Below, in pieces: positions 4,107-21,962 of a stretch of 64,000 nucleotides of DNA (the stretch's first letter is position 1; each line of letters opens with the position of its first letter). Where the stretch lies: positions 192,001-256,000 of the forward strand of contig OZ251518.1 in the NCBI GenBank assembly GCA_965242965.1, read 5' to 3'. A program made the translations under genes and the position numbers. The DNA is from Candidatus Poribacteria bacterium (GTDB lineage: Bacteria; Poribacteria; WGA-4E; WGA-3G). Under the pieces are notes generated by a model. It had not been told where the DNA came from and searched no databases. It was given only the letters and a program-made list of their open reading frames with translations.

Positions 4107-5996
4107 ATGCAGGACCGGAAACCAGAACCCGCAACAGACTTCGCCACTTGGAGACTACCCGAAGGTGCAATCGCCCGGTTAGGGCGCGGCGATGTGGGCA
4201 GCGCGGCATTCTCACCAGACGAAAAGTATCTCGCCGTTTCAACTCGCTGGACGGGAATGATGTGGCTGTATGAACTCCCAACGCTATCCCCCGTGGCATT
4301 TTGGGAAGAAAGTGGCGGCATCACCTTTTCACCCGATAGCCAACGGCTCCTCGTGAGCAAAGGAAATGGATTGAGAATATGGGACGTGCAGCAACACGCT
4401 TGCATTACTGCTCTAGAAAACGTGCATGGCGGCACGCCTGTCTTCTCTCCAGATGGACAGCGGATAGTCACATTTGATGATACAAAAATCTATGTCTGGT
4501 GCGCGCAGACTGGCAGGCAGATTCGCGAAACGGAATTGTGCGAAAAGGGCTTAACCCGTCCCGGTAACGTTTTCTCTGCGGACATCAAGTTCTTGGCGCG
4601 TCAGAATTACGATATTGAACGTGGTAGGGATAAATCCTTTTCAGTCTTCGATGTCGAAACTGGGGAACAACTTGTCTGCATCACGGATGTGCCTAAGTGG
4701 GCGCAGCTCTTCAGTTTTTCGCCGTGTGGAAAATTCCTCGCGGTAGGTGGGCTGAGTGGCAGCCTTGATGTTTGGGAGTGGCAAAGCGAACGGCTACACT
4801 TGGCCACCGAATACGGAGACGGGCCTGTCCTTCCTTACTATCCCCCAACAGGTGAACTACTCGTTGCGGCCCGCAGTCAGCGGACAACGGCCGTATGGAA
4901 TGTAACCGAGAAACTTGACACTTTTGAATGCCACGGCAATAAAGGCACCCCGGTCTGTTTCTCTCAAAGCGGCGCATTCTTGTTGGCATCTGAAAGTTCC
5001 GGTGAGCTCTACGTGTGGGCGAAAGGCGATGCGAATGCACACACGCTTTCAACCCTTGATGGATATCTTAGGACAGTTGATTCGTTAGCCTTCTCCGCAG
5101 ACAGCAAGACATTAGCCGCCGCGATTTGGGGTGGGAATATCCTCTTATGGGATGTTGCCAGTCGACATTCGCAACGGCCAGAGGTGGCAATCGGCGGCAC
5201 AGAACAGGTTGTGCATCCCACTGCCAGCGGGAAAATCCTTGCGACTTCCAGAGACAGCGAAAACGTCAAAATATGGGAACTCGGTAATAGTGAACCAATT
5301 GCCGAGTTTGTTGAACCCGATACAGGCATTCGCAAGTCGCGCATTCGCAAGTTGCGTTACGAAGCCTTATCGCCTACTGGACAACAATTTGCCTTGTGCG
5401 ATTGCCAAGGCGACTTCCATGTGTGGGATTGGGCATCGCACAAAATGCCTCAGCACACTCTATTTACAGGGCATGGGCAGGACGATGTATCGTATGCATT
5501 AGCCTTTAGTCCAGATGGAAAACGCCTCGCCGGAATAGCATGCGAATGGACAGGCCGTTTGTGGGATATCAACGCGCGGACAGAGATTGCAGAATTGTCC
5601 TTTACATTACCGTCAAAACCGGGAGTAGTGGGCATAGCGTTTTCGCCGCGAGGTGACATTATTGCCGGTGCGCAGCGGGGTGAAATCGTCTTATGGGACG
5701 CGACGAACGGAAAAACGCTGATGAGTCTGCCGCAACCGGAAGAGAATCAGAACCCGGTGGTGTTGTGCTTCTCTCCCTGTGGCCGCTATTTTGCTTCCGG
5801 TTCGTGGTATCAGCGCGGTTTGAAACAGATGCCTATCCGGTTGTGGGAGGTTGCAACCGGTGAGAATATCGTCACCTTCCACGGTCATACCAGCGATGTC
5901 CAGTGCATCGCCTTTTCGCCGGATGGCACGCTCATGGCAACCGGCGGACATGATGGTGTCATTTTGCTTTGGGATGTGAGGAATTATCTGCAATAG
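4107..5996 (+). CDS. WD40-repeat beta-propeller protein (no signal peptide)
   Basis: Start taken at ATG 4107 after AGGAGG; LPEGAIARLG N-motif and many AFSPDG...LWD repeats. Confidence 0.9.
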   Translation: MQDRKPEPATDFATWRLPEGAIARLGRGDVGSAAFSPDEKYLAVSTRWTGMMWLYELPTLSPVAFWEESGGITFSPDSQRLLVSKGNGLRIWDVQQHACITALENVHGGTPVFSPDGQRIVTFDDTKIYVWCAQTGRQIRETELCEKGLTRPGNVFSADIKFLARQNYDIERGRDKSFSVFDVETGEQLVCITDVPKWAQLFSFSPCGKFLAVGGLSGSLDVWEWQSERLHLATEYGDGPVLPYYPPTGELLVAARSQRTTAVWNVTEKLDTFECHGNKGTPVCFSQSGAFLLASESSGELYVWAKGDANAHTLSTLDGYLRTVDSLAFSADSKTLAAAIWGGNILLWDVASRHSQRPEVAIGGTEQVVHPTASGKILATSRDSENVKIWELGNSEPIAEFVEPDTGIRKSRIRKLRYEALSPTGQQFALCDCQGDFHVWDWASHKMPQHTLFTGHGQDDVSYALAFSPDGKRLAGIACEWTGRLWDINARTEIAELSFTLPSKPGVVGIAFSPRGDIIAGAQRGEIVLWDATNGKTLMSLPQPEENQNPVVLCFSPCGRYFASGSWYQRGLKQMPIRLWEVATGENIVTFHGHTSDVQCIAFSPDGTLMATGGHDGVILLWDVRNYLQ

Positions 5997-13663: not shown

Positions 13664-13698
13664 GCATCGAAGAGCCTGCCGGGTCTTGATGTCTTCCC

Positions 13699-14040
13699 GG
13701 GTAGGAGAGACCTCCCGGTCTCGATGCAACACTATAACCCTTATTAAGGTCCTACGGACCTTGATCGGGTGCAGCACATTTTTCTATAGACATTCAGGTC
13801 CTACGGACCTAAAAGAGCCTGTCCCCCGCGATTGTCCGGTGGACCGCAGCATGGCGAGGGACAGGCCCTCGCCCTACGGCGAGGGGGGCGTTCTGCGAAG
13901 AAAATGTCCCGTTACCGTAGCGCGGGGGCCTGTCCCCCGCGATCGTTCGGTGGACCGCAGCACGGCGGGGGATAGGCCCTCGCCCTACGGTGAAGGAGTG
14001 CCGTTTTTTTTGCGTGCGCGGAGGTCTGTCCCTCGCGAAT
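13699..14040. repeat. Composite REP-like block
   Basis: GTAGGAGAGACCTCCCGGTCTCGAT, AAGGTCCTACGGACCT x2, GGCGAGGGACAGGCCCTCGCCCTAC and GTAGCGCGGGGGCCTGTCCCCCGCG; closely similar to 10647-10830. Confidence 0.9.
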
Positions 14041-14147: not shown

Positions 14148-14954
14148 ATGCTCGCGCAAAATGAACTGCTGGAAATTGAGCAAATCAACACCGAACTTGA
14201 ATCCTATCTCACCCGCATCGGCAAGATAACCTATCGGTTTCCAGCGCATGACTCCGGATGCCAATCGTTCGGCGTAACAGTAGCAGGACAACCGTGGTTC
14301 GTCAAATACAGCGAAGTTCCGCAAGCAATCACGTGGCTCAAGCAGGCGGTCCGTTTCCACGCGGCGATACAGCACGCGGCACTCCCTCGGTTGCACAACG
14401 CCTTCGCCACGCCGGAAGGATTCACCCTCGTCTACGACTGGGTAGATGGCGAAACGCTTCGGCCCGAACGGGAATTGAAAGCCGATGAGATGCATCCCCG
14501 CGACCGGTTTTGCGCGCTGCCCGCCGATGAAATCGTCGCGGCGATTAATGTCATCTATGACGTGCATCTCGTCGTGGAAGAAAAGGGCTTCATCGCCGAA
14601 GACTTTTACGATGGCTGCATCATCTACAATTTTGAGGAGAAGCGCATCCACTTATTCGACTTCGACCATTATCATCCGCAGCCGTTCATCAACGAACGCG
14701 GAAGATTATACGGTTCAACCCGCTTCATGGCACCCGAAGAATTCCAGAAGGGTGAGCGCATCGATGAAACAACGAACGTTTTTATGCTCGGACGAACGGC
14801 GTTCGTGCTGCTTGCAAACAGCAGCGATGCACGGCAAGACTGGAAAGGCACCGAGGCGATGTGGCAGGTAGCCAAGAAAGCGACGAACCTTGACAGGAAG
14901 TTGCGGTATCCATCGGTGAAGGATTTCGTCACTGCATGGCACGCCGCCTATTAA
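14148..14954 (+). CDS. Ser/Thr protein kinase-like protein
   Basis: WFVKY, LVYDWVDGE, AEDFYDGCII, LFDFD, GSTRFMAPEEF and NVFMLG subdomain motifs; upstream GTGACT-17-TATACT. Confidence 0.8.
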   Translation: MLAQNELLEIEQINTELESYLTRIGKITYRFPAHDSGCQSFGVTVAGQPWFVKYSEVPQAITWLKQAVRFHAAIQHAALPRLHNAFATPEGFTLVYDWVDGETLRPERELKADEMHPRDRFCALPADEIVAAINVIYDVHLVVEEKGFIAEDFYDGCIIYNFEEKRIHLFDFDHYHPQPFINERGRLYGSTRFMAPEEFQKGERIDETTNVFMLGRTAFVLLANSSDARQDWKGTEAMWQVAKKATNLDRKLRYPSVKDFVTAWHAAY

Positions 14955-14988: not shown

Positions 14989-15727
14989 TGGGGGTGTTTC
15001 GTAACTCGTTGTTGTCAAAATGGTTTCGTGAGATTCCGAACGATGCCGTTTCCTCGATAGGAGAGACCTCCTGGTCTCGATGCAACAACACTATAACCCT
15101 TATTAAGGTCCGTAGGACCTTGCTAGGGTGCGGCACGTTTTTCTATAAACATTCAGGTCCTACGGACCTAAAAGAGGTTTTTGATAGCCCGCAGCACGGC
15201 GAGGGACAGGCCCTCGCCCTACGGTAAGGGGGCGGCGTTTTTTTATCGTAGCGCGGGGGCCTGTCCCCCGCGATCGTTGGAGTGCGCGGGCACGCAAAGG
15301 TCCTACTAAAAGAGGTTTTTGATAGCCCGCAGCACGGCGAGGGACAGGCCCTCGCCCTACGGTAAGGGGGTGGCGTTTTTTTTACCGTAGCGCGGGGGCC
15401 TGTCCCCCGCGATCGTTGGAGTGCGCGGGCACGCAAAGGTCCTACGGACTAAAAGAGGTTTTTGATAGATCGCAGCATGGCGAGGGACAGGCCCTCGCCC
15501 TACGATGAAGGGGGCCGTGCTGCCAAGAACACCTCACGTTACCGTAGCGCGGGGGCCTGTCCCCCGCGATCGTTGGAGTGCGCGGGCACGCACGATGGCG
15601 AGGGAAACCCTCTCGGATGCGCGGATGGCATCCGAGGGCCCAAGCCCTACGTGAAAGGGAAGGCGTTTTTTTCACCGCATCGCGGGGCCTATCACCGCGA
15701 CGTTGAGCGATTTATGAAACACCCTCA
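14989..15727. mobile_element. TIR-bounded composite REP element (~740 bp, non-autonomous)
   Basis: Left TGGGGGTGTTTCGTA, right TATGAAACACCCTCA; left ~80 bp is the reverse complement of 8480-8557; internal ~140-bp tandem duplication. Confidence 0.7.
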
Positions 15728-16653: not shown

Positions 16654-17418
16654 ATGAAGGTTCTACTCGTCGGAGGTTCAGGACACGTTGGAACAATGAC
16701 GCTGCCCTACATGAAGCAGCACCACGAATTCCGCGTGCTGGACATGTCACCGCCGAAAGATACGTCTGTGGAATACATCCAAGGCTCAGTCACCGACCCG
16801 GGGATTGTCCAAGAAGCGATGAAGGGCATGGACACGTTCGTCTACATGGTGATGCAACGTCCGACAAGCGACCGGTCATCCGTCGCGAATTTTGACGACA
16901 TCGTCGCAAATTACGATGTCAACGCCAAGGGACTTCATCTCGTTCTACACGCGGCGAAAGCGGCGGGCATTCGGCACGCTGTCTACACAAGCACCTTCAC
17001 AGTCCACGAACGGACGCGTAACAATTTTCCTTATGAAGATGTCGTGCCGCGGGATAATCCGGGTGTCTACGGCTTAACGAAAAGTTTTGGCGAGCAGGTC
17101 TGCGAATACTTTGCGCGAGAGCACGATATGTCGCTTATCGCCTTACGCATTACGGGCCCTTCCACGCGCGAGCAATGGTTGGAACGCCGCCCGCAAATCC
17201 TCGCGCGCTTGCAAGGCACCTCTACCGAAGAATCTGTCCATATTTGGTGGACAGATGAGGAAGACCTGGCGCGTGCATACCTCGCCGCCATTTCGGTTGA
17301 ACACCGCGGATTTGATGCTGTCTTCATCGCCGGTGATTACGAACAGCGGGAGATTAATCTCTCCAAAGCGAAACGATTGCTTGGCTGGGAGCCGCTGACG
17401 CATAAACAGATGGAGTAA
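16654..17418 (+). CDS. NAD-dependent epimerase/dehydratase (extended SDR)
   Basis: ATG 16654 after AGGAGG; GGSGHVG and YGLTK motifs. Confidence 0.88.
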   Translation: MKVLLVGGSGHVGTMTLPYMKQHHEFRVLDMSPPKDTSVEYIQGSVTDPGIVQEAMKGMDTFVYMVMQRPTSDRSSVANFDDIVANYDVNAKGLHLVLHAAKAAGIRHAVYTSTFTVHERTRNNFPYEDVVPRDNPGVYGLTKSFGEQVCEYFAREHDMSLIALRITGPSTREQWLERRPQILARLQGTSTEESVHIWWTDEEDLARAYLAAISVEHRGFDAVFIAGDYEQREINLSKAKRLLGWEPLTHKQME

Positions 17419-17517
17419 ATTGATTTCTAGCATGTTCTCCCGCTACCGGGAACCGGTGTAAAAAACTTGCTTTTAATTTACAATTAATGGTATTTTAAAA
17501 ATAGAAGGAATTTGCCT

Positions 17518-18300
17518 ATGACACATCCAGAATTAACACTCGTCGAAAACCGCCCATTCCAGACTCGCCGCCAAGACACGTGGTGGGTGCAACCCTTGGC
17601 TGTCTTCATTGGGTTGGGGGCTTTCATCGTTTACGCGACCTTCCGCGTTTTGGAAGGCGACAATTATCTCGTAGGGCCTTACCTATCGCCGTTTTATTCG
17701 CCGCTCCTTTTTAGTCCTGACGGTTCCCACAGTTGGTTCGGGACGATGCCGGCGTGGCTGCCCGCGTGGATTTCGCCAGCGGCACTGATTCTCTGGGCAC
17801 CTGCGGGGTTTCGGTTTACGTGCTACTATTACCGTGGCGCATACTACAAGGCGTTTTGGGCAGACCCGCCATCTTGCACCGTATCAGAACCGCGTAAAGG
17901 CTATCGGGGAGAGCAATCGTTTCCTCTGGTTATTCAGAACGTTCATCGATACTTCCTTTACCTCGCGCTCATTTTCATCGTTATCCTCGCATACGATGTG
18001 TGGAAAGCGATGTGGTTTGAAGGGAAATTCGGTATCGGGATAGGCACGCTTGTTTTAGCAGGCAACGTTATCTTTTTAGGAGGCTATACGTTCGGCTGCC
18101 ACTCTTTACGGCATCTCGTCGGCGGCGGCATCGATTTGCTTTCTAAGGCACCGGTGCGTCGAAACATGTATAACTGCGTCAGCTGCCTTAACCGCAGGCA
18201 CATGCTGTGGGCTTGGATGAGCCTCTCGTGGGTGGCACTGTCCGATATTTACGTTCGCGTTTTAGCGAAGACCGGCTGGCAGGATTGGATTACGTTTTAA
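17518..18300 (+). CDS. succinate dehydrogenase membrane anchor, actinobacterial Sdh1 (Rv0249c-like) type
   Basis: YLSPFYSP, GFRFTCYYYRGAYYKAFWADPPSC, FPLVIQNVHRYF and GCHSLRHLVGG motifs; multiple TM helices; upstream of sdhAB. Alternative TTG start at 17512. Confidence 0.85.
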   Translation: MTHPELTLVENRPFQTRRQDTWWVQPLAVFIGLGAFIVYATFRVLEGDNYLVGPYLSPFYSPLLFSPDGSHSWFGTMPAWLPAWISPAALILWAPAGFRFTCYYYRGAYYKAFWADPPSCTVSEPRKGYRGEQSFPLVIQNVHRYFLYLALIFIVILAYDVWKAMWFEGKFGIGIGTLVLAGNVIFLGGYTFGCHSLRHLVGGGIDLLSKAPVRRNMYNCVSCLNRRHMLWAWMSLSWVALSDIYVRVLAKTGWQDWITF

Positions 18301-18327
18301 CATTAAATCCAGAATTCTTCTATCACC

Positions 18328-18357
18328 TTGACACGAAACTGCAATTTGTGGTAAACT
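18328..18357 (+). promoter_or_regulatory. sigma70-type promoter internal to the sdh operon, upstream of the ART gene
   Basis: TTGACA-18 bp-TAAACT with extended -10 TG. Confidence 0.65.
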
Positions 18358-18405
18358 GATAGTGCATGGTTCAGGATTCCACGTCATAAAAAAGGAAAAT
18401 CGATT

Positions 18406-18981
18406 TTGATAGTCTATCGCGGCGCGGGCATCGGCAGTTATTGGTATGTGCATAATCCGGCAGAGACAGGGTTTACTGCTAGAGCCCCTCGCGCATCTCC
18501 GACTCCGGAACGGCTGATGCAACATATTTCTCGCGGCACGGGCAACAGCCCGTTTATATCGCTGACGCGTTCATACGCGGTGGCGCGGCACTACGCGATG
18601 CTCATCAGTACACGCACGCCTACGCCTCAAGATCCGGCCTACGTTTACGAGGTAGAGATTGAGTTCCCGCTACTCTCTGGGCTCCAACTTTTGGATCCTG
18701 TCAAAGTAGTCGCGCAGGCACTACCTGATATAGCGAGTCCGGGGCCGCCTTATCAGCACGATGGGATACCCAATTTCTTGCTCGGTGTCGTTGATTCGGA
18801 GAACATGAGGGAGTTTCTGGAAAAACATGCGCCGCAGCCTCCATCTAGCGAAGGCACCCCGCGCCCGCCAAATCTGTCAATTGAATTAGAGACGCTGGTG
18901 CGGGCCCTACGCGATGCGGAAATTCTGGCACTCGGCATCATCCCGGCTGTCTGTGTCAAAAACTGTTTTGATATCTATTAA
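18406..18981 (+). CDS. putative ADP-ribosyltransferase, cholera/pertussis toxin A-like (R-S-E clan)
   Basis: VYRG (R), GFTA...H, NSPFISLT (S-x-T), YVYEVE, and DAEILALGIIP (catalytic E; cf. cholera toxin EQEVSALGGIP). TTG start after AAGGA; no signal peptide. Confidence 0.75.
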   Translation: MIVYRGAGIGSYWYVHNPAETGFTARAPRASPTPERLMQHISRGTGNSPFISLTRSYAVARHYAMLISTRTPTPQDPAYVYEVEIEFPLLSGLQLLDPVKVVAQALPDIASPGPPYQHDGIPNFLLGVVDSENMREFLEKHAPQPPSSEGTPRPPNLSIELETLVRALRDAEILALGIIPAVCVKNCFDIY

Positions 18982-19041
18982 ATTCTTATGGTTGCGCAAC
19001 TTGCAAATACTTTGCGCAGCCCTTAAGAAGAGGAAACTCCC

Positions 19042-19395
19042 ATGAAACACATAGTCGATCACGCCAATCACGTCGATTACACGCTGAAGATAATTGACAT
19101 AGATGAACGCGTGCCCAACATTGATTCCATTGAATTCCTGTGGATAGAACGTCCTTATTGGGAGGGGCAACGATACGGCCCCTTTGCACGGGTGCGCTAT
19201 GCTCTCGACGGTGTTGAGCAAGTCGACGGCTTCCCCATAGACGTGGACAAAGGCATCTTCCTTTCCGTTTACGATGATGAATTGGCCGAAAAACTCCGGA
19301 AAATCGCACCGAAAATCGTTGAACTCCTTCACGAGGATCTCAAGAAACCTCCTACCGGAGACGAGCGATTTGTCTCGCCTTTCGCGAAAAACTAG
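19042..19395 (+). CDS. hypothetical 117-aa acidic protein, candidate antitoxin/partner of the ART
   Basis: GAGG RBS; directly downstream of and co-oriented with the ART; no recognisable family. Confidence 0.65.
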   Translation: MKHIVDHANHVDYTLKIIDIDERVPNIDSIEFLWIERPYWEGQRYGPFARVRYALDGVEQVDGFPIDVDKGIFLSVYDDELAEKLRKIAPKIVELLHEDLKKPPTGDERFVSPFAKN

Positions 19396-19405
19396 GGGGA
19401 AAACT

Positions 19406-21223
19406 TTGAGCTCTTATGAAACTTACGATTACGACGTGCTAATAATCGGCGCAGGCGGTGCCGGACTTCGTGCCGCGATTGAAGCCGCCGCCGGCAATCT
19501 CTCTGTCGGACTGATTTGCAAATCGCTGCTCGGCAAAGCACATACCGTCATGGCGGAAGGTGGTGTCGCCGCCGCACTCGCTAATGTCGACGAGAGAGAT
19601 AGCTGGCGGGTGCACTTCGCCGATACGATGCGCGGCGGACAGTATCTCTCCAACGCGCGGATGGCTGAACTCCACGCACAAGAATCACCGGAACGGGTGC
19701 GCGAACTTGAAGCATGGGGCGCGCTTTTCGACCGGACGGCGGAAGGAAGCATCCTCCAACGGAACTTCGGCGGACATCAATACCCCCGCCTCGCGCACGT
19801 CGGTGACCGGACGGGATTGGAGATGATCCGGGCTCTGCAGGACCACGGTATCCATCAAGGCATCGAGGTCCACATGGAGCACACCATCGTCTCTCTCCTC
19901 AAAAACGGCGAACGCATCGCCGGTGCCTTCGGCTATGAACGCGAAAAAGGCAGATTCAAAATCTTCTCCGCGAAGTCAGTCGTTCTCGCAACCGGCGGCG
20001 TGGGGAAGGCTTTCAAAATTACTAGCAACAGCTGGGAGTACACCGGCGATGGCCACGCCCTCGCTTATCATGCAGGCGCGGAACTCATCGACATGGAGTT
20101 TGTTCAATTCCATCCTACCGGGATGGTCTGGCCCCCAAGCGTGCGTGGCATTTTGGTGACTGAAGGTGTGCGCGGCGAAGGCGGCATCCTCACAAATAGT
20201 GAAGGACGACGCTTTATGTTTGACGACATCCCCGAACTTTACAAAAACCAAACCGCTGATAACCCGGAGGAAGGCTGGCGATACACGCAAGGCGACAGAG
20301 ACGCGCGCAGACCTCCGGAATTGCTCACCCGCGATCACGTCGCACGATGCATCGTGCGAGAAGTCGCAGAAGGACGCGGTAGTCCACATGGCGGTGTCTT
20401 CCTGGATATCGCGTGGATAAAGGAGAAACTGCCGAACGCACCGGAACACATCCGCAGAAAGTTGCCGAGCATGTATCACCAATTCAAGGAACTCGCCGAT
20501 ATTGACATCACGGCGGAACCGATGGAAGTAGGTCCGACAACGCACTATATCATGGGTGGCATCCGAGTGGATGCCGATACGCAGATGACAGCGGTGCCGG
20601 GGCTCTTCGCCGCGGGCGAATGCGCAGCAGGATTACACGGAGCAAACCGACTCGGCGGGAATTCCCTCTCTGACCTGCTCGTTTTCGGCAAACGTGCCGG
20701 TGAATACGCCGCACAATTCGCAGCGGAAAACGGAAGCGTTCAGATTGACAAGGCGCAGGCAGACGCGATAACCGCCGAAGTGCTGAAACCTTTTGAGAAT
20801 AGCGCGGACGGGGATAACCCCTATCAAATTCAGGCACAACTCCAAGAGATGATGCAGGAACTCGTCGGCATCGCGCGAAGCGAGGCGAACCTGACGCGTG
20901 CGTTGGAAGAAATCCAGGGCCTCGCCGAAAAAGCGCGCAACGTTCATGCCATCGGCAATCGCGAGTATAACGCCGGCTGGCACACTGCGCTCGATCTGGA
21001 CAATCTCCTCACCGTCTCCGAGGCAATTGCGCTCGCTGCAATGGAGCGGAGAGCCAGCATCGGCGCGCATTCACGCGACGATTACCCGGAGAAGGAAGAG
21101 CCCGGGGCGGGCAAATACAATACCGTTATCCAGAAGGCACCCGAAGGCACGATGACAATCCGGCGGAATCCTATCCCCGAATTGCCGGAAGATTTACAAG
21201 CAATCATAGAGGAAATGGGATAA
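19406..21223 (+). CDS. sdhA: succinate dehydrogenase/fumarate reductase flavoprotein subunit
   Basis: TTG start at 19406 after GGGGA; GAGGAGLRAA, AHTVMAEGG (FAD-His), QFHPTG, HYIMGG and LHGANRLGGNSL motifs. Confidence 0.95.
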   Translation: MSSYETYDYDVLIIGAGGAGLRAAIEAAAGNLSVGLICKSLLGKAHTVMAEGGVAAALANVDERDSWRVHFADTMRGGQYLSNARMAELHAQESPERVRELEAWGALFDRTAEGSILQRNFGGHQYPRLAHVGDRTGLEMIRALQDHGIHQGIEVHMEHTIVSLLKNGERIAGAFGYEREKGRFKIFSAKSVVLATGGVGKAFKITSNSWEYTGDGHALAYHAGAELIDMEFVQFHPTGMVWPPSVRGILVTEGVRGEGGILTNSEGRRFMFDDIPELYKNQTADNPEEGWRYTQGDRDARRPPELLTRDHVARCIVREVAEGRGSPHGGVFLDIAWIKEKLPNAPEHIRRKLPSMYHQFKELADIDITAEPMEVGPTTHYIMGGIRVDADTQMTAVPGLFAAGECAAGLHGANRLGGNSLSDLLVFGKRAGEYAAQFAAENGSVQIDKAQADAITAEVLKPFENSADGDNPYQIQAQLQEMMQELVGIARSEANLTRALEEIQGLAEKARNVHAIGNREYNAGWHTALDLDNLLTVSEAIALAAMERRASIGAHSRDDYPEKEEPGAGKYNTVIQKAPEGTMTIRRNPIPELPEDLQAIIEEMG

Positions 21224-21224
21224 A

Positions 21225-21962
21225 ATGGCGAAAACAACGTTTAGAATCTGGCGCGGGGATGCCAACGATGCAAAATTTGTCGATTATGAAACCGACATCT
21301 CCGAAGGCATGGTAGTCCTCGATGCCATTCACCGCATCCAAGCGGAACAAGCGAATGACTTGGCGGTTCGGTGGAACTGCAAGGCGGGAAAATGTGGCTC
21401 CTGCTCCGCCGAAATCAACGGCAATCCGAAGTTGATGTGCATGATGCGCATGAGCGATTTGCCGTCAGAGCAGCCGGTAACGGTAGAACCGATGCGCGCC
21501 TTCCCACTTATCAAAGACTTGGTTACGGACGTATCCTGGAACTTCAAGGTGAAGGAACGTATGAAGCCGTTCACACCACGTCCCCCGGATGCCGATGATG
21601 GAACATGGCGCATGGAACAGGAAGACATCGATGGCATCCAAGAATTTCGGAAGTGCATCGAGTGCTTTTTGTGTCAAGATGTCTGCCATGTCCTCCGCGA
21701 GCATGAGCTCCACGAGGAATTCATCGGGCCGCGCTTTTTTGTGTATGCGGCATCGTTAGAGATGCATCCCATTGACACCGAAAACCGGCTCGCCGAATTG
21801 AAAGACACAGATGGCATCGGGTATTGCAACATCACGAAGTGTTGCACGAAGGTGTGCCCGGAGCACATCACGATTACGGACAACGCCATCATCCCGTTGA
21901 AAGAACGCGTCGTTGATGAATTCTACGATCCGGTGAAAAAGTTATTCCGCATTTTTAGTTAG
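21225..21962 (+). CDS. sdhB: succinate dehydrogenase/fumarate reductase iron-sulfur subunit
   Basis: CKAGKCGSC, CIECFLCQDVC and CNITKCCTKVCP clusters. Confidence 0.95.
   Translation: MAKTTFRIWRGDANDAKFVDYETDISEGMVVLDAIHRIQAEQANDLAVRWNCKAGKCGSCSAEINGNPKLMCMMRMSDLPSEQPVTVEPMRAFPLIKDLVTDVSWNFKVKERMKPFTPRPPDADDGTWRMEQEDIDGIQEFRKCIECFLCQDVCHVLREHELHEEFIGPRFFVYAASLEMHPIDTENRLAELKDTDGIGYCNITKCCTKVCPEHITITDNAIIPLKERVVDEFYDPVKKLFRIFS

Follow-up and report, generated by a model that had tools for sequence, protein, structure and literature searches.

A two-gene cassette within a succinate dehydrogenase operon

The DNA analysed here is a stretch of 64,000 nt (the window) from the genome of a sponge symbiont, a Candidatus Poribacteria bacterium (assembly GCA_965242965.1, contig OZ251518.1, positions 192,001–256,000). 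It contains a succinate dehydrogenase (sdh) operon in which two small open reading frames (ORFs), encoding proteins of 191 and 117 amino acids (aa), separate the membrane-anchor gene sdhC from the flavoprotein gene sdhA. We consider that this cassette is probably a two-gene toxin–antidote module of a previously uncharacterised family, in which the 191-aa protein, predicted to have the fold of an ADP-ribosyltransferase (ART), would be the toxin and the acidic 117-aa partner its antidote. The evidence computed here comprises the fold, the conserved residues, the strict pairing of the two genes, their patchy multi-copy spread, their asymmetric decay and the history of the insertion. An initial annotation of the window had described, at 18328–19395, a two-gene unit that splits the sdh operon, and both the position and the layout were reproduced, with the two ORFs at 18406–18981 and 19042–19395. 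G000 denotes the genome of the window itself, and G001 and G002 denote the other two species of its genus, g1. The features of the locus are as follows.

17512–18300, + strand: sdhC-like, Sdh1-type membrane-anchor gene (262 aa), identified by its match to 7d6v_C; upstream flank of the insertion
18328–18357, + strand: promoter-like site, TTGACA-18-TAAACT with an extended −10 TG (10/12 matches), conserved in G000, G001 and G002
18406–18981, + strand: ORF of 191 aa with a predicted cytoplasmic ART fold, putative toxin (AlphaFold model, Foldseek, conservation, Atlas)
19042–19395, + strand: ORF of 117 aa, acidic, putative antidote/antitoxin, found downstream of every intact ART gene
19406–21223, + strand: sdhA flavoprotein gene (FAD_binding_2 at 9e-92; match to 7d6v_A)
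21225–21962, + strand: sdhB iron–sulfur subunit gene (Fer2_3 at 1.2e-25, Fer4_8)

Pairing and asymmetric decay

Among 41 related genomes the enzyme gene is present in 19, and the partner gene is present in exactly those 19. The partner lies directly downstream and on the same strand at 29/29 intact ART loci, as the initial annotation had anticipated in proposing that the two ORFs would co-occur elsewhere; by locus, it was directly downstream at 12/12 of the first loci and then at 28/28 further loci. No intact ART gene without a partner was found among the 41 genomes. The partner, in contrast, is often found without an intact enzyme. Twelve ART loci are degraded (fragments, internal deletions or stops), nine of them with the partner alongside, and a further 11 partner matches have no ART match beside them, which gives 20 partners beside a degraded enzyme or none.

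Two of these cases belong to the genus of the window. At the sdh locus of G001 the promoter and an intact partner (75% identical) persist, with the enzyme reduced to three short remnants of ∼130 nt in all. The genome of the window has a second locus (L070, 4586–5964; G000:C1) at which nothing but the initial nine codons of the enzyme gene is left; the decayed gene (4586–4969) is overrun by repeats that resemble repetitive extragenic palindromes (REPs) and are of the same element type as repeats in the window, and the partner-like gene is intact, encoding 339 aa with a duplicated C-terminal module. As a separate observation, G001 has a different palindromic repeat between sdhC and the cassette (L015, ∼2330–2400). 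A toxin that never occurs without its antidote, together with an antidote that often occurs without its toxin, is the signature expected of a toxin–antidote pair, and the predicted enzyme and its partner display it in these genome comparisons.

Family and fold of the 191-residue protein

A search of a 90%-clustered collection returned 520 homologues of the 191-aa protein within the length range used, the named ones being Candidatus Poribacteria. At 50% identity the family comprises at least 306 cluster representatives, of which 234 have an expectation value (E) of ≤1e-10. The AlphaFold2 model, based like the conservation counts below on 63 diverse homologues, has a predicted local distance difference test score (pLDDT) of 96.7 and a predicted template-modelling score of 0.88. 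That the ORFs arose by chance or are dead remnants is highly improbable and, as far as computation goes, refuted: besides the 520 homologues, the 306 cluster representatives and the high-confidence model, the ratio of nonsynonymous to synonymous substitution rates (dN/dS) is below 1 in both genes, neither reading frame is disrupted and the promoter-like site has been conserved.

Foldseek comparison of the model with the PDB gave, among the matches listed, only ARTs of the cholera-toxin group. They comprise CARDS toxin, cholera toxin A1, pertussis S1, EcPltA, the typhoid toxin subunit PltA and heat-labile enterotoxins, with the Rhs toxins TreTu and TreX at ranks 48–49, at probabilities of 0.97–1.00 and a best E of 6.4e-4. 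The template-modelling scores (TM-scores) are only 0.37–0.47 and the E values ∼1e-3, so that the model places the protein as a distant member of the group. A protein-language-model search of the Atlas agrees with this placement, giving clusters annotated Pertussis_S1, Scabin-like, NarE, Enterotoxin_a and DUF7587 at 0.92–0.96. Matches to viral structures were weak: the best was Gp610 of Bacillus phage G (E of 8e-4, TM-score of 0.42), and E was ≥0.1 for the BFVD matches to DarT, Arr, ModA/B and Tpt1-like proteins. They are consistent with an ART fold and add little. The ART fold had been proposed by the initial annotation from motifs, a proposal that the structure search could have refuted; the search instead returned a cholera/pertussis-group fold, at TM-scores below 0.5.

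The protein is mildly acidic, with an isoelectric point (pI) of 5.7. Its homologues start only 2–4 residues before the Y[R/K]G motif of the first strand, leaving no room for a signal peptide, the absence of which had already been noted in the initial annotation. Of ten longer relatives, two carry an N-terminal TIR (TIR_2) domain and one a calcineurin-like phosphoesterase domain; the fusion proteins are P0177, P0218 and P0156, the phosphoesterase fusion having 678 aa. The precomputed label PF24494.2 is attached to some close homologues. Searches of the literature on DUF7587, on ARTs of Poribacteria and on pertussis-like ART toxin–antitoxins, supplementary files not covered, yielded no description of the family.

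An effector directed against the sponge host or other eukaryotes, with the partner as a chaperone or self-protection factor, would agree with the nearest structures being toxins that act on eukaryotic cells, with the presence of the stretch in runs labelled as sponge metagenome and with the partly eukaryotic make-up of the DUF7587-bearing Atlas clusters. Against it, the protein starts at its first catalytic strand and lacks a signal peptide, a translocation domain and a B subunit, and no secretion-system genes were seen beside any locus examined. Its strict coupling to a partner, and the decay of enzyme genes where partners are kept, suggest that the target lies within bacterial cells, and the family has relatives in free-living lineages of soil and water. 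We regard such an effector as quite unlikely.

Candidate active site

The motifs listed in the initial annotation (VYRG, GFTA, H40, NSPFISLT, YVYEVE and DAEILALGIIP) are all present in the 191-aa ORF. In the model R5 lies inside the first strand (residues 2–7), S52-L-T54-R-S56 covers the end of the strand 50–54 and the start of the helix 57–66, and E172 begins the strand 172–176. Position 5 is basic in 63/63 homologues (Lys in 39 and Arg in 24); H40, S52, S56, R169 and D170 are each found in 63/63; position 54 is Thr in 51 and Ser in 12. Y63 and H118 are conserved in 61/63 each, and G120 and E172 in 62/63 each. The central strand (YVYEVE) is separated from the catalytic strand by a helical insertion of ∼70 residues (roughly 98–169), which contains a family-specific, near-invariant Y-x-H-D-G motif.

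Judged from the model, the order and placement of R5, S-x-T and x-x-E are those of the R/S-T-S/x-x-E layout of the ART group, and the candidate active site consists of [K/R]5, H40, S52/T54/S56 and R169-D170-A-E172. Of the R–S–E signature claimed by the initial annotation, the S-x-T/S element is borne out; E172 is conserved, with Asp two residues before it, and at the first element Arg is replaced by Lys in 39/63 homologues; none of the toxin models of Pfam is matched. In the initial annotation D-x-E was taken as a hint that the target may be non-canonical. The pair E82-x-E84 of YVYEVE was considered as an alternative catalytic pair and was rejected, as E82 is present in only 44/63 homologues and position 84 is Asp or Glu.

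These departures from canonical motifs (Lys at the Arg position in 39/63 homologues, and D-x-E), together with the large family-specific insertion bearing Y-x-H-D-G and the weak BFVD matches that include Arr-like and Tpt1-like proteins, could also suit an ART-fold protein without toxicity, working in NAD+ (nicotinamide adenine dinucleotide) or ADP-ribose metabolism or in an Arr-like modification of small molecules, with the partner as substrate carrier or specificity subunit. Such a role is unlikely, given that asymmetric decay and TIR fusions are typical of conflict systems and that the best structural matches are toxins that modify proteins or nucleic acids.

Distribution and insertion history

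The ART gene is present in 18/24 genomes of the family to which the window belongs, with up to six matches per genome, and in 0/16 genomes of three sister families. At 27/30 sdhC loci sdhA lies 3–327 nt downstream with nothing between; at the other three, one in each species of genus g1, the insert separates sdhC from sdhA. Since only these three species among the 30 sdh loci have it, the comparison indicates that the cassette entered the sdh operon once, in the ancestor of genus g1. The initial annotation had suggested that the pair would be absent from related sdh operons, which is so outside this one genus. The sdhC matches of two relatives (L020 in G013 and L032 in G023) contain one in-frame TAA each, which may be sequencing error or pseudogenisation.

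The close clade of ARTs (65–87% identical) occupies unrelated sites. In four genomes (L045 in G023, L047 in G015, L048 in G003 and L049 in G010) the cassette is inserted in a suf operon with common flanking ORFs. On one side lies a glutaredoxin-like gene, itself downstream of sufB/sufD, and on the other a cysteine desulfurase gene; at L045, where Pfam was applied, two SufB/D genes precede the cassette and a class-V aminotransferase gene follows it. Elsewhere the neighbours are a type III restriction–modification methylase and a DUF3800 gene (L044), ResIII helicase genes (L051 and L054), or a Pycsar-type TIR effector gene with a DDE transposase fragment (L055). The remaining close-clade loci examined have assorted housekeeping neighbours.

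Beyond Poribacteria, a search with a sub-alignment of 12 sequences as the query found relatives in metagenome-assembled genomes labelled as Vicinamibacteria, Acidobacteriota, Gammaproteobacteria, Deltaproteobacteria, Alphaproteobacteria, Betaproteobacteria, Chloroflexota and Binatia. A small ORF of ∼80–125 aa directly follows the ART gene at 8/9 of the non-Poribacteria loci examined that have downstream sequence (L078 being the remaining one), and five of the small ORFs form a clearly related set. Their similarity to the Poribacteria partner family is weak by profile–profile comparison (probability of 15.5%, E of 0.0017 over 35 columns). One alphaproteobacterial protein bridges the two sets, with an E of 8e-6 to the partner profile and 3.7e-5 to the L080 ORF. 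The sequence evidence for homology between the Poribacteria partner and the small ORFs of other phyla is only suggestive.

The location of the close clade in two core operons related to iron–sulfur clusters, sdh in g1 and suf in four genomes, raises the alternative of a regulatory pair of the DraT/DraG kind, in which the enzyme would reversibly modify a metabolic protein such as an Sdh or Suf component, the partner would modulate it and the position in the operon would be functional. Retention of the sdh insert through speciation, purifying selection on both genes and the stable locus of a more divergent clade (described below) agree with it. It fits less well with the multiple patchy copies and the absence of the ART from 6/24 genomes of the family, with the frequent decay of enzyme genes beside persisting partners, and with the non-metabolic character of the other contexts (restriction–modification, TIR, transposase fragment). 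Moreover, 27/30 sdh operons function without the cassette, and the partner has no hydrolase fold. We therefore hold a regulatory pair to be unlikely.

The 117-residue partner

The partner has a pI of 5.0, in line with the small acidic partner described by the initial annotation. It has no matches in Pfam or PADLOC (both at E up to 1), NCBIfam or PHROGs, no fold match in the PDB by Foldseek (best E of 0.31) and no neighbour above 0.76 in the Atlas. Its model (pLDDT of 79) consists of a β-sheet followed by one long C-terminal helix. It diverges faster than the enzyme, a word-based search finding just 20 relatives; between G000 and G002 the dN/dS is 0.24 for the enzyme, 0.41 for the partner and 0.08 for sdhC, values indicating that both cassette genes are under purifying selection between these two species. 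Prediction of the enzyme–partner complex from alignments gave a score of 0.00 with the partner fold itself uncertain, and is evidence neither way.

Partner-domain proteins with long C-terminal extensions were seen at two loci: one of 498 aa (L054, 1952–3448) with a C-terminal FRG domain and TPR repeats, and one of 460 aa (L047, 4655–6037) with a C-terminal HSDR_N-like, nuclease-type domain. The occurrence of such extensions suggests that the N-terminal domain of the partner is a reusable module.

The sdh locus and its promoter-like site

The product of the sdhC-like gene has a match at an E of 2.7e-62 in 7d6v_C, ‘Succinate dehydrogenase (membrane anchor subunit)’, and the sdhA product matches the solved mycobacterial flavoprotein 7d6v_A with an E of 1.4e-219; 7d6v is an entry which we take to be ‘Sdh1’, a mycobacterial succinate dehydrogenase. 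Both flanks of the cassette are thus of the Sdh1 type, to which the initial annotation had compared them. A spacer of 105 nt, which holds the promoter-like site, separates sdhC from the 191-aa ORF, and 60 nt separate the 191-aa ORF from the 117-aa ORF. The 191-aa ORF has a TTG start with AAGGA 9 nt upstream. The likely start of sdhA is a TTG at 19406, 10 nt past the stop codon of the partner, and the 10 nt contain GGGGGAAAA. TTG starts are thus apparent in three genes in a row: sdhC (17512), the ART gene (18406) and sdhA (19406).

The promoter-like site was the sole match of a scan over 17300–19600, in which one match was found against 2.1 expected in shuffled sequence; taken alone, it is statistically no better than chance over this interval. 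Its weight comes from its conservation in all three species with the insertion (G000, G001 and G002). The claim of the initial annotation that the unit has its own promoter is thereby upheld as to the presence and retention of the site and falls short on the statistics of the site itself. The scan found no terminator-like site between the partner gene and sdhA, and for this reason sdhAB are probably expressed by read-through from the cassette. That the insert might be an sdhD gene with a frameshift or a wrong annotation was considered and rejected, as both ORFs have their own homologues at loci outside sdh.

Contigs from four runs of separate studies map to the stretch, and two of the runs each have one contig that extends from sdhC across the 191-aa and 117-aa ORFs into sdhA (X10 record 9; X5 record 27, from a run labelled sponge metagenome). 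None of the public runs listed as containing the stretch is an RNA run. Because sponge-metagenome contigs of separate studies bridge it, the arrangement is not an assembly artefact. No contig joint that skips the whole cassette was seen, although the contigs cannot exclude such alleles. A smaller joint in the X1 and X3 contigs skips 93 nt (window 18947–19041), between the final codons of the ART gene and the start codon of the partner; with only 30 nt on its shorter side, it may reflect either strain variation or an artefact.

Further upstream, clusters of palindromic repeats resembling REPs or miniature inverted-repeat transposable elements (13694–14025 and 15050–15687) flank a 268-aa ORF at 14148–14954. 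The repeats form families of 51–91 nt that are 64–99% identical, with many inverted pairs, and two direct repeats lie ∼1356–1359 nt apart. Read in frame, they give ‘GTGPRAT / ARDRPSPYG’ pseudo-peptides that recur in many spurious ORFs.

Comparison with known systems

The best structural matches of the 191-aa protein are cholera toxin A1, the A subunit of the heat-labile enterotoxin (LT), pertussis S1, PltA and CARDS toxin, and its Atlas neighbours carry the Pertussis_S1, Enterotoxin_a and Scabin-like families. It shares with this group the order of elements: a basic residue in strand 1, a His, S-x-T/S, a central aromatic strand and x-x-E. It differs in having no sequence-model match, signal peptide, A2 or B subunits or disulfide loop, and in having the ∼70-residue helical insertion with Y-x-H-D-G, D-x-E in place of E/Q-x-E, mostly Lys for Arg, and a dedicated downstream partner.

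The pierisin, scabin and ScARP base ADP-ribosyltransferases belong to the same structural group, and Atlas neighbours of the 191-aa protein carry the Scabin-like Pfam family. These enzymes are secreted and use Q-x-E. The 191-aa protein, in contrast, has no PF22596 match, is predicted to be cytoplasmic and has D-x-E. ScARP and Scabin are reported to act on the guanosine and cytidine of nucleic acids (PMC12945103).

In TreTu–TriTu and Tre1–Tri1, associated with Rhs proteins and the type VI secretion system, the gene of an ART-fold toxin immediately precedes that of its small immunity protein, an arrangement that the cassette resembles. TreTu and Tre1 form the C-terminal parts of secreted polymorphic toxins; the 191-aa protein is predicted to be cytoplasmic, is free-standing and has no delivery domain, and the partner shows no structural similarity to TriTu (Foldseek E of 0.78, probability of 0.06).

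DarT–DarG, ParT–ParS and CmdTAC are toxin–antitoxin or abortive-infection systems with ART toxins. The cassette shares with them a cytoplasmic ART, here a putative toxin, encoded next to a neutraliser, here equally putative, a patchy and mobile distribution and occasional placement beside restriction–modification and TIR defence genes; with DarTG it also shares the toxin-first gene order. The fold of the 191-aa protein is of the cholera/pertussis type, not DarT/PARP-like or of the ParT type, and the partner is not a macrodomain and matches no known antitoxin family. No PADLOC model matches either protein.

Proposed mechanism and assessment

Enzymatic activity, toxicity, neutralisation by binding and defence are what we infer from the evidence above, and we combine them as follows. 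The 191-aa protein would be a cytoplasmic ART of the cholera/pertussis/scabin structural group. By analogy with characterised members, R5 in strand 1, the strand-to-helix motif S52-x-T54 and H40 would bind NAD+, and E172, within R169-D170-A-E172, would transfer ADP-ribose to an essential intracellular target, protein or nucleic acid. A nucleic-acid target is plausible, since the scabin/ScARP relatives modify nucleic acids. The 117-aa partner, which would be co-transcribed from just downstream, would neutralise the enzyme, most likely by direct binding because it has no hydrolase-like fold. The pair would move between genomic sites and lineages, and would have landed between sdhC and sdhA in the ancestor of a Poribacteria genus, bringing its own promoter. 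As sdhAB are now probably read through from the cassette and would depend on it, precise loss of the cassette from the operon would be constrained. A role in abortive-infection defence, suggested by the TIR fusions and by the defence-like genes around a minority of loci, is plausible, but of all the steps it has the least support.

Several observations weigh against a toxin–antidote module. In a Pfam scan of the 191-aa protein (E up to 1) the Enterotoxin_a, Pertussis_S1 and Scabin-like (PF22596) models were unmatched, and the sole signal was DUF7587 (PF24494) over residues 34–65, at an E of 0.0016 and 19 bits against a 27-bit cutoff. PADLOC (E up to 1), NCBIfam and PHROGs gave no matches to it, and neither a sequence search (best E of 0.56, a BNR protein) nor a profile search (best E of 1, YaaQ) of the PDB found an ART. 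The TM-scores are low, as given above. The equivalences of residues to those of known ARTs follow from the order of motifs and strands and not from superposition; the residue at the canonical Arg position is Lys in most family members, and the residue two before E172 is an invariant Asp (D170) and not the Gln or Glu of [Q/E]-x-E. The partner has none of the DNA-binding domains typical of type II antitoxins (helix–turn–helix, ribbon–helix–helix or AbrB) in a Pfam scan at E up to 1 or in its model, and a toxin-first gene order is the less common one in toxin–antitoxin pairs.

Genomic context adds two further points of this kind. Defence-like contexts make up only about 4/13 of those examined in the close clade. 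The divergent clade of ARTs (40–57% identical) has a more stable locus, 7/14 of its loci having the same size pattern of downstream ORFs, with FGE-sulfatase and FG-GAP/ASPIC genes downstream at L068; by its gene order this locus looks vertically inherited rather than selfish.

We nevertheless favour the toxin–antidote module over the regulatory, eukaryote-directed and non-toxic explanations, mainly because of the asymmetry of decay, the pattern of copy number and the absence of an export signal. A more ambitious proposal is also quite improbable: that the cassette represents a new ART family with a [K/R]-S-(D-x-E) site and a novel class of target, wired into iron–sulfur and respiratory operons (sdh here, suf in relatives), with its own promoter driving sdhAB. 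Respiratory state or phage-induced shut-off would then set the ratio of toxin to antidote, making the pair a metabolism-coupled switch for abortive infection or dormancy with the N-terminal domain of the partner as its sensor.

Biological significance

ART toxin–antidote pairs are already well known, and the cassette is therefore a new family in a known kind of system and not a new category. What is new is a predicted enzyme of the cholera/pertussis fold that would work inside bacteria, with a [K/R]-S-(D-x-E) site and a partner of new fold, in a family of at least 306 clusters at 50% identity that spans several phyla without a curated model. Each of the ART toxin–antidote pairs DarTG, ParTS, CmdTAC and Tre1/Tri1 has brought to light a previously unknown cellular target or modification of nucleic acids, and the variant catalytic motif found here makes the target of the predicted enzyme a directly testable question. 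For the genus itself, the insertion in sdh, an essential respiratory operon, kept through speciation, would be a clean natural example of a cassette becoming hard to lose.

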